Shown here in pieces: positions 55,065 through 56,232 of a stretch of 64,000 nt of DNA. The stretch is from Patescibacteria group bacterium (GTDB lineage: Bacteria; Patescibacteriota; JACPGU01), in NCBI GenBank assembly GCA_022703645.1, contig JAKLDG010000001.1, positions 669,254 to 733,253 on the forward strand. The letters run 5' to 3'. Position 1 is the first letter of the stretch. Each line of letters begins with the position of its first letter. The notes below the pieces were generated by a model that did not search any database, was not told the origin of the DNA, and worked only from the letters and a program-made list of their open reading frames with translations. Both the position numbers and the translations under genes were made by a program.

Positions 55065-56232
55065 TTATTTATTTTTAGAAACTCTTCTATATTCTTCTCT
55101 ATAAATATCTCGCAACCCTTCTTCTATTTTAAAGGCTTTTGCATGCGAGCAAACTCCCATATATGACATTACCGTTTGACGAAAGTTTTTCAGAGTGATT
55201 CCCCCTTTATTTAATAACCCTCTTTTTTGTTCAATTTTTCTAAACATTCTCTTTTTAGTTTTAGTTCGAAGAAGTTTGTGATGAGGAAAAACCACATATC
55301 CCAAAAAATCCATTCCCTGATTCGGCTTGCAGATAATAGTTTTATTATGATGCAACTGAAGTTTTAAATTTTCCTGAAGAAAAATTTCAATTCGAGATAA
55401 TTCGCCCAAATCCGCATAATTCGCGATCACCATATCATCGCAATATCTTGCATAGCACCTGATTTTCAAATTATGTTTTATAAATTGGTCCAATTCGTTT
55501 AGATAGATATTAGCAAATAATTGGGATGTAAGATTTCCCAACGGAATTCCTCGAGCCGAATTCTTTGTACTCTCTCTCTCTCTCTCTCTCTCTCTCTCTC
55601 TCGATTTGTTTTTCCGCAAAACTATCAATTACTTCTTTAATCAACCATAAAACATCCTCGTCTTCGATTCTCTTTTTTATGAGATCAAACAATATTCCAT
55701 GATCTATAGACGCGAAGAATTTTTTGATATCGCATTTAATGATTATTGGTCGGCATTTTGTAGAGGCGAATCCCTGTGTTCGCCTAGATCCGGGCAGACA
55801 CGGGGGTCTGCCCCTACGAATAAATTTTTGCAATCTATTTACCGCCTTATGTGTTCCTTTATTATTTCTGCACGAATAAGAATCGTAAATAAATGTTTTA
55901 TCAAAAATCGGATATAAAATTCTGTAAATAGCATGATGGACGATGCGGTCGCGAACACAGGCCTTATGGATATGTCTTCTTTTTGGATCGTTGATGAAAA
56001 AAGAGGTATAATAGGAATGTTTGTAGGTTTTGGACTTGAGCTCATCGTGAAGTTGAAATAAATTGTTTTCGAGATTCAGCGCGAATTCTTGAACATCACA
56101 TTTGCTCATTTTTACCTTCTTAAATTCTTTCCAAGAAAGATACAGGTTTTCTATTGAAATAATATTAACAAAAATATCATGACTAGCGCCACTAACCAAA
56201 CTGCCGATTTTTTTCTCCCCGATGTCATTCAT
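55065..56232 (-). CDS. diversity-generating retroelement (DGR) reverse transcriptase, split into two overlapping frames by a (TC)16/(GA)16 tract
   Basis: ORFs 55510-56232 and 55065-55628 together align along Bordetella phage Brt: DRIVHHAIYRILYPIF, NNKGTHKAV, IKCDIKKFFASIDH, GIPLGNLTSQLFANIY (DGR hallmark), YARYCDD (YxDD), FLGYVV; +1 frame offset at the repeat. Confidence 0.85.
55571..55602. repeat. (TC)16 dinucleotide microsatellite inside the DGR RT gene
   Basis: tctc...x16 encodes (RE)n/(ER)n in both overlapping frames; +1 or -2 units would fuse the two RT frames. Confidence 0.9.

Follow-up and report, generated by a model that had tools for sequence, protein, structure and literature searches.

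The reverse transcriptase (RT) gene of a DGR in a Patescibacteria group bacterium is split into two reading frames exactly at a perfect G(AG)16 repeat, and it seems probable that this tract is a reversible, DNA-level slipped-strand switch on the RT. The gene lies in a stretch of 64 kb that we analysed as a whole and refer to as the window. That repeat-split RTs are a real, family-wide phenomenon we regard as very likely.

A simple-sequence repeat splits the RT gene

In the order in which they are read, the parts of the gene are:

Positions 55603 to 56232, minus strand: N-terminal part of the RT (fingers, motifs 1-3), with its ATG at 56232; RVT_1 profile positions 8-107.
Positions 55570 to 55602, minus strand: G(AG)16, a perfect simple-sequence repeat at which the RT changes frame; on the plus strand it is (CT)16C.
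Positions 55065 to 55569, minus strand: C-terminal part of the RT in the +1 frame, with motif 4 (GIPLGNLTSQ), motif 5 (YCDD) and the thumb; RVT_1 profile positions 111-204.

Two minus-strand ORFs overlap at the tract. The ORF at 56232..55510 (240 aa) matches positions 8-107 of the Pfam RVT_1 profile and that at 55628..55065 (187 aa) matches positions 111-204, so a single RT is broken exactly at the repeat. An earlier reading of the window from its letters alone (the original prediction) had described two overlapping minus-strand RT ORFs, offset by +1 at a (TC)16 run, and both the ORFs and the profile segments confirm this; its (TC)16 at 55571-55602 equals our (CT)16C at 55570-55602. The N-terminal ORF continues out of frame past the tract to a stop at 55510, and the C-terminal mechanical ORF starts with TTG at 55628, upstream of the tract, with no other in-frame start. 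As had also been predicted, the tract is translated as RE or ER repeats in both frames.

When the RT was rebuilt with 0-21 units, it came into frame solely at n = 2 mod 3, with a fused product of 389 aa for 17 units and of 387 aa for 14. The expectation that the gain of one unit or the loss of two would fuse the halves into an RT of about 390 aa was thus borne out, as were the other factual points of the original prediction. The junction sequence is (GA)n followed by TAC. In Tandem Repeats Finder, the tract scores 66 (period 2, 16.5 copies, 100% matches) and is the top tandem repeat of the window. It is also the sole dinucleotide run of more than 5 units in these 64 kb (34% G+C), which places it far beyond chance.

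The lesion stands alone. Both halves of the gene are free of stops and all nearly invariant residues are kept, including LGNLTSQ and YCDD, so that this copy of the RT has one lesion, at a repeat whose unit is not divisible by 3. Where a pseudogene would show several lesions and neutral evolution, we found a single lesion and a clade-level dN/dS of about 0.1. The DGR-clade RT motifs [LIV]GxxxSQ and YxDD are present in the C-terminal frame as IPLGNLTSQLFAN and YCDD, and the closest solved structure is 8ub7_A ('Reverse transcriptase', 328 aa, E=5.6e-37), which we take to be bRT; group II intron RTs rank lower. The tract sits in a variable loop between RT motifs 3 and 4. This loop varies in length among homologs, and the alignment to 8ub7_A breaks there, at query residues 192-226; RE or Gly runs of varying length should therefore be tolerated at this place.

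The rest of the DGR appears to be in place

Apart from the RT split, the DGR appears complete, with a bAvd-like gene, TR, VR and target:

Positions 56236 to 56574, plus strand: bAvd-like accessory gene, divergent from the RT (PF22296); an alternative start at 56179 gives 131 aa.
Positions 56594 to 56720, minus strand: TR, the adenine-rich copy of a 127-nt repeat pair.
Positions 57063 to 57189, minus strand: VR at the 3' end of the target gene, 87% identical to the TR.
Positions 57036 to 57872, minus strand: DGR target gene, 278 aa from GTG (274 aa in the JGI gene call), with no Pfam match.

Of 17 mismatches between TR and VR, 16 fall at TR adenines and the remaining one is G>T; non-adenine substitutions have been reported as frequent in CPR DGRs (PMC5758913). 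The VR ends 27 nt before the stop of the target ORF (57872..57036), whose product gave no match in the Pfam search, and a GC-rich 3' stretch common to TR and VR, CTGCGTCCCCGCTCCG, is IMH-like by its sequence. The match of the accessory gene to PF22296 (E=6.3e-8, 33.5 bits) lies under the 40-bit curated cut-off, and its 112-aa product carries a precomputed, unmarked bAvd match; the gene sits between TR and RT on the opposite strand and is syntenic with bAvd genes adjoining homologous RTs. To judge from the adenine pattern, the open target ORF and the bAvd-like gene, this DGR has been active in the past and its parts are intact.

Several details of the layout are worth recording. The start codons of avd (56236 or 56179, plus strand) and of the RT (ATG at 56232, minus strand) lie back to back or overlap. 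The TR is upstream of the RT with avd antisense between them, and the same layout occurs in three relatives (L003, L004 and L006); since avd lies between TR and RT on the other strand, a TR-RT transcript must cross it in antisense. Directly 3' of the target gene stop and VR, at 57005-57033, is a tandem heptamer, (ATTCAGG) x4. In other DGRs, a hairpin needed for homing occupies that place.

Alleles of the same species

We found two further assemblies of this locus, L001 (JGI 3300009776, contig Ga0116154_10000029) and L002 (ENA ERZ27257455, contig k141_250367). Over about 6.7 kb, these and the window differ in the tract alone: there are 16 units in the window, 16 in L001 and 15 in L002, every one of them out of frame, and 0 other differences. 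The VR, compared like the alleles as assembly consensus sequences, is identical in all three and so gives no sign of current DGR activity. Two proteins, P0003 (240 aa, the N-terminal ORF of the window) and P0121 (243 aa, its tail in the third reading frame), correspond to the 16- and 15-unit alleles, and the N-terminal ORF product is identical to an NCBI protein (HRY59873.1) of a Patescibacteria MAG.

A fourth allele, P0123 (185 aa, same cluster, on a 571-kb JGI contig), ends in ...SIDHGIYCLIS. Read from the protein alone, this would reflect two inserted nucleotides (AT) some 105 nt upstream of the tract, a second lesion outside the repeat, and given this second frameshift the RT of the window may be in recent decay.

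In this species we saw OFF (out-of-frame) alleles only, and at the homologous site in relatives both ON (in-frame) and OFF alleles. Among 5.8 billion proteins there was no in-frame allele of this species, and the top full-length match to its RT in that collection is 67% identical. A metagenome scan with the exact flanks of the species and a variable gap, a pattern that does match the window, gave no match, the organism being absent from the collection scanned. The three assemblies may share the same or related samples (two contigs are 282,390 and 282,413 nt long), and the difference between 15 and 16 units could therefore partly be due to PCR stutter or assembler choice. With 16 units, the tract exceeds every ON allele seen (6-12), so that unconstrained expansion after inactivation is conceivable.

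The same repeat site in relatives

The poly-RE linker that the original prediction would look for in orthologous RTs is present: at the position of the tract, ERERES or RERERERES occurs in each of the three full-length RTs nearest to this one (58-67% identity). Their DNA there is a perfect G(AG)8, G(AG)8 and G(AG)12, each in frame and each followed by TAC. In the sequences compared here, a perfect (GA)n or a G homopolymer occupies the same loop, just ahead of motif 4, in many CPR and DPANN RT genes.

We scanned genome and metagenome collections for G(AG)5TAC followed within <=30 nt by GxPLGN codons, a pattern that is blind to frame. These scans yielded 8 lineages with at least 5 units. Two of them keep the frame (L012 and L008, the P0002 genome), and in the other 6 the break falls exactly at the tract and leaves two long open frames (Woesearchaeota MAG L007; Nanoarchaeota MAG L009/L014; L010; L011/L013; L015; L016). 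An ON:OFF count of 2:6 is a small sample; it fits random phase, in which one third would be in frame, and is far from what ordinary genes show. Across all loci, the shift is +1 in the window, L007 and L016 and -1 in L002, L009-L015 and L017, while L003, L004, L006, L012 and L019 are in frame. The clade of L009, L011 and L015 has OFF alleles only (n = 7, 8). A homopolymer can split the gene as well: at the DNA level, the RT of L018 is interrupted by G12 in an AT-rich genome. That of L017 is interrupted by (AG)10, again confirmed in the DNA.

When proteins were searched with the N-terminal half of an archaeal RT, fragments of about 200 aa came back by the hundred, many of them on contigs of 100-400 kb. 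Among the best 120 short N-terminal RT fragments, 35 end just past the RE run and 55 past the Gly run, with tails that are out-of-frame readings of KGMPLGNLTSQFFAN; CPR-type RT fragments show the same pattern of endings. This search seems to favour matches of similar length in its candidate step and returned almost only short proteins, and for that reason we took the ratio of ON to OFF from the frame-blind scans instead. Scans of viral contigs for (GA)n or a G9 run followed by motif 4 gave 0 matches.

Two other features of the archaeal loci were seen along the way. A second G-run, downstream of YVDD, also truncates some archaeal RTs (P0275/P0277, P0311, P0316, P0337, P0347), and P0275 and P0277, 100% identical over 257 aa, differ in phase at this run. 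In L017, about 460 nt comprising the RT 3' end and the start of EF-G are duplicated (11-505 vs 3552-4030, 3.5 kb apart, 85-91% identity), which suggests two tandem DGR/EF-G units in this Nanoarchaeota-type contig.

ON/OFF pairs and selection on split genes

The geometry of phase variation that had been predicted for the RT is supported by pairs of alleles in relatives. L019 (n=9, with an intact 370-aa RT) and L020 (n=8, split), each taken from its own ENA assembly, match throughout 1570 nt bar one AG unit, as would be the signature of a slipped-strand contingency locus. All three frames are represented by P0233 (ON, about 6 units), P0301 (OFF, about 8) and P0299 (OFF, about 10), which are 98-99% identical. 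P0158 (ON) and P0345 (OFF) are 100% identical. Three further pairs have N-halves that are 100% identical and differ in repeat phase: P0269 and P0267, with (AG)10 vs 11, P0289 and P0290, and the P0275 and P0277 already named.

At the split loci, both halves are open for 165-300 codons. Between split genes, dN/dS by the Nei-Gojobori method was as follows:

L009 vs L011, N half: dN/dS 0.12, dS 1.2
L009 vs L011, C half: dN/dS 0.07, dS 1.7
L011 vs L015, N half: dN/dS 0.10, dS 0.7
L011 vs L015, C half: dN/dS 0.12, dS 0.5

With dN/dS of about 0.1 in the C halves of split genes, the part downstream of the frameshift must have been translated during divergence. The loci of L009, L011 and L015 also have TR/VR pairs that differ at TR adenines. 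Judged by these comparisons, the split genes in relatives are apparently not decaying. For the RT of the window, dN/dS against L003 is about 0.1, a value in which the terminal branch of the window RT is not separable.

A switch model and its alternatives

In the model that we favour, (GA)16 would be a hypermutable repeat situated between motifs 3 and 4 of the DGR RT, in a surface loop that tolerates changes in length, and slipped-strand mispairing in replication would gain or lose GA units. One third of lengths (n = 2 mod 3: 14, 17, and so on) would give a full-length RT; the other two thirds would give a truncated fingers domain, with no cDNA synthesis and a frozen VR. Cells with the RT ON would carry out adenine mutagenesis of the VR of the target gene, and the population would flicker between ON and OFF. 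The majority state of the sequenced population would be OFF (n = 16, or 15 in the sibling assembly), with the window allele one unit gain short of ON. The tract would be one instance of a device common to many CPR and DPANN DGRs, with (GA)n or poly-G at the same site. We infer that switching here is reversible and frequent, takes place at the DNA level and has been selected as a brake on mutagenesis. That perfect repeats have persisted at a single site in two domains points to selection, or at the very least to continuing slippage; this is true even of G12 in AT-rich genomes, although a synonymous change within the run would make the gene stable.

The original prediction had allowed for an inactivating lesion or an assembly error, and both are disfavoured by the comparative data. 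If the tract were a fragile site in a decaying pseudogene, the RT would have been lost by slippage, the tract would have expanded freely, the DGR would be dead or dying, and recurrence in relatives would be recurrent loss rather than a selected switch. All four alleles of this species are indeed OFF, one of them (P0123) with a second frameshift; the VR is invariant among assemblies, one TR/VR mismatch is not at an adenine, and no tract seen is longer than n=16. Frameshifted DGR RTs, met with sporadically, have been read as recent inactivation (PMC3521204). Yet decay would not leave the halves in the window stop-free with the nearly invariant residues kept, nor a repeat that is perfect at the same site in CPR bacteria and DPANN archaea when a synonymous interruption would stabilise the gene, nor a dN/dS of about 0.1 downstream of the frameshift in split relatives, nor ON and OFF alleles coexisting in identical backgrounds, and at 16 units reversion is as easy as loss. 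We consider decay unlikely. It is very improbable that the split is an artefact of assembly or sequencing and that the RT is in truth intact, with 17 (or 14) units in the genome. While 32-nt dinucleotide repeats are prone to PCR stutter and two assemblies do differ by one unit, the assemblies give 16, 16 and 15 units, never 17 or another in-frame number, and short tracts of (AG)7-10, which Illumina reads handle well, are reproducibly out of frame in different samples (L009/L014, L011/L013, L017).

Two other explanations take the out-of-frame gene to be functional as it stands. In programmed recoding, the out-of-frame genotype would be the normal one, a designed resting state from which RT is made mainly by non-heritable slippage on (GA)n or Gn: RNA polymerase slips by one GA unit, or tRNA-Arg(AGA)/tRNA-Glu(GAG) re-pairs 2 nt away, some full-length RT results, and mutagenesis is kept rare without a heritable switch. 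Out-of-frame consensus sequences are common with the C-terminal half still under purifying selection, exactly (AG)7 is common to five archaeal lineages, and no ON allele was seen for the species of the window or the L009 clade, all of which recoding would account for. The shift that it requires is not conserved, however, with +1 and -1 types in close relatives (7 vs 8, 10 vs 11, 15 vs 16), and in-frame alleles are present in the same lineages; a varying direction together with in-frame alleles is the pattern of DNA-level contingency, not of a conserved recoding site. The junction has neither an X XXY YYZ heptamer nor a homopolymeric A/T run. As for the polymerase, a repeat of at least 11 nt should allow the 9-bp RNA:DNA hybrid to shift by 2 nt and still be fully paired. 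Purine-RNA:pyrimidine-DNA hybrids are stable, which counts against transcriptional slippage at the tract. In E. coli, di- and trinucleotide repeats do give rise to transcription indels, yet insertions arise almost exclusively at A/T runs, and slippage is disfavoured where the context is G-rich (PMC5574713). We find it quite unlikely that recoding explains the split, and the same holds for the out-of-frame genotype as a designed resting state; if that reading were true, it would mean a new class of dinucleotide-repeat recoding signal, in bacteria and archaea, that sets how often a DGR fires. One form of recoding, -1 ribosomal frameshifting, we rejected, as the slippery heptamer is absent and the direction of the shift varies. 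Hardly credible is an RT of two polypeptides, its N and C halves made separately by internal initiation after the tract and then assembled. A purine-rich tract does resemble a ribosome-binding site, and in archaeal relatives an ATG (the M of GMPLGN) follows a short way downstream; at this point the window, like other CPR genes, reads GIPLGN and offers no ATG, for which reason we rejected initiation at that Met as a general answer. The sole in-frame start is the TTG upstream of the tract, the break would separate fingers from palm, and intact single-chain alleles exist in identical backgrounds.

Relation to known systems

Classical contingency loci of simple-sequence repeats include the CT repeats in outer-membrane protein genes of Helicobacter pylori, such as oipA/hopH, and the poly-G tracts in surface genes of Campylobacter, Neisseria and Haemophilus. 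The RT tract shares with them a perfect repeat within an ORF, a unit that is not a multiple of 3, a gene that otherwise seems intact, unit numbers that vary among otherwise identical genomes and, in relatives, the finding of ON and both OFF frames. It differs in that the gated gene encodes a hypermutation RT rather than a surface protein or modification enzyme, in that the repeat lies mid-gene in a loop of the catalytic domain rather than near the 5' end, and in its hosts, CPR bacteria and DPANN archaea, in which phase variation has hardly been studied. Repeats or homopolymers in mutS and mutL toggle mismatch repair, and these too are slippage-prone repeats that switch a determinant of mutation rate on and off; there mutation is genome-wide, whereas here the toggled mutagenesis would affect no more than about 127 nt in a single target gene. 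Programmed slippage or frameshifting is known in dnaX and in IS-element transposases, where a full-length product likewise needs a change of frame at a slippery run. Those sites are short homopolymers or heptamers with a conserved direction, unlike the long dinucleotide run found here, with its varying direction and in-frame alleles.

As a DGR, the locus resembles the Bordetella phage BPP-1 prototype in its LGxxxSQ motif 4, adenine-specific TR/VR differences, VR at the 3' end of the target and Avd-like gene, and departs from described DGRs in that its RT gene is interrupted by a hypermutable repeat. In the published CPR/DPANN set, 90% of DGRs have the B3 architecture (Wu et al. 2018, PMC5758913). 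In the DGR surveys consulted, frameshifted RTs are mentioned only as sporadic and treated as inactivation (PMC3521204), and control by a repeat is not described. We found no description of a repeat-gated DGR RT in the literature searched, including PMC5758913, PMC3521204 and PMC8144416, and an earlier mention is possible. What appears to be new is the combination, a hypermutable repeat within a DGR's own RT, recurrent across CPR and DPANN; the slippage mechanism itself is classical.

If the switch model is true, the repeat in the RT would be a simple answer to the question of how the very DGR-rich CPR and DPANN keep mutagenesis rare, and of when a DGR fires. Were the gate stochastic, heritable and reversible, few cells at a time would diversify their target protein, and it is tempting to see in this a bet-hedging arrangement with two tiers, a contingency locus governing a targeted hypermutator. 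Only 1.5 kb separates the tract from the VR, so repeat number could be linked to VR variants on single long reads. Gene callers and DGR finders see repeat-split RTs as fragments or pseudogenes, and with hundreds of such fragments of about 200 aa, DGR censuses and calls of active and inactive DGRs in CPR and DPANN are probably biased.

GC-rich inserts in the RT gene

The RT of the window has one further unusual element, which is a side feature outside the switch:

Positions 55760 to 55817, minus strand: GC-rich imperfect palindrome of 58 nt, an in-frame insert in the RT (aa RRGRPPCLPGSRRTQGFASTKC).

The folding energy of the palindrome is -30.5 kcal/mol (z = -3.0). It occurs once in the window, and solved RTs and most homologs lack it. 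Rickettsia has in-frame palindromic inserts, the RPEs, to which it bears a resemblance. A second GC-rich hairpin insert, ggttcaacctcggggattccccgaggttgaacc, was seen in the closest homolog, L003, at 3163-3230, just past its (GA)8, where it lengthens the stretch between repeat and motif 4 by about 20 aa. It appears that the repeat-bearing RT loop can also take up structured GC-rich inserts.
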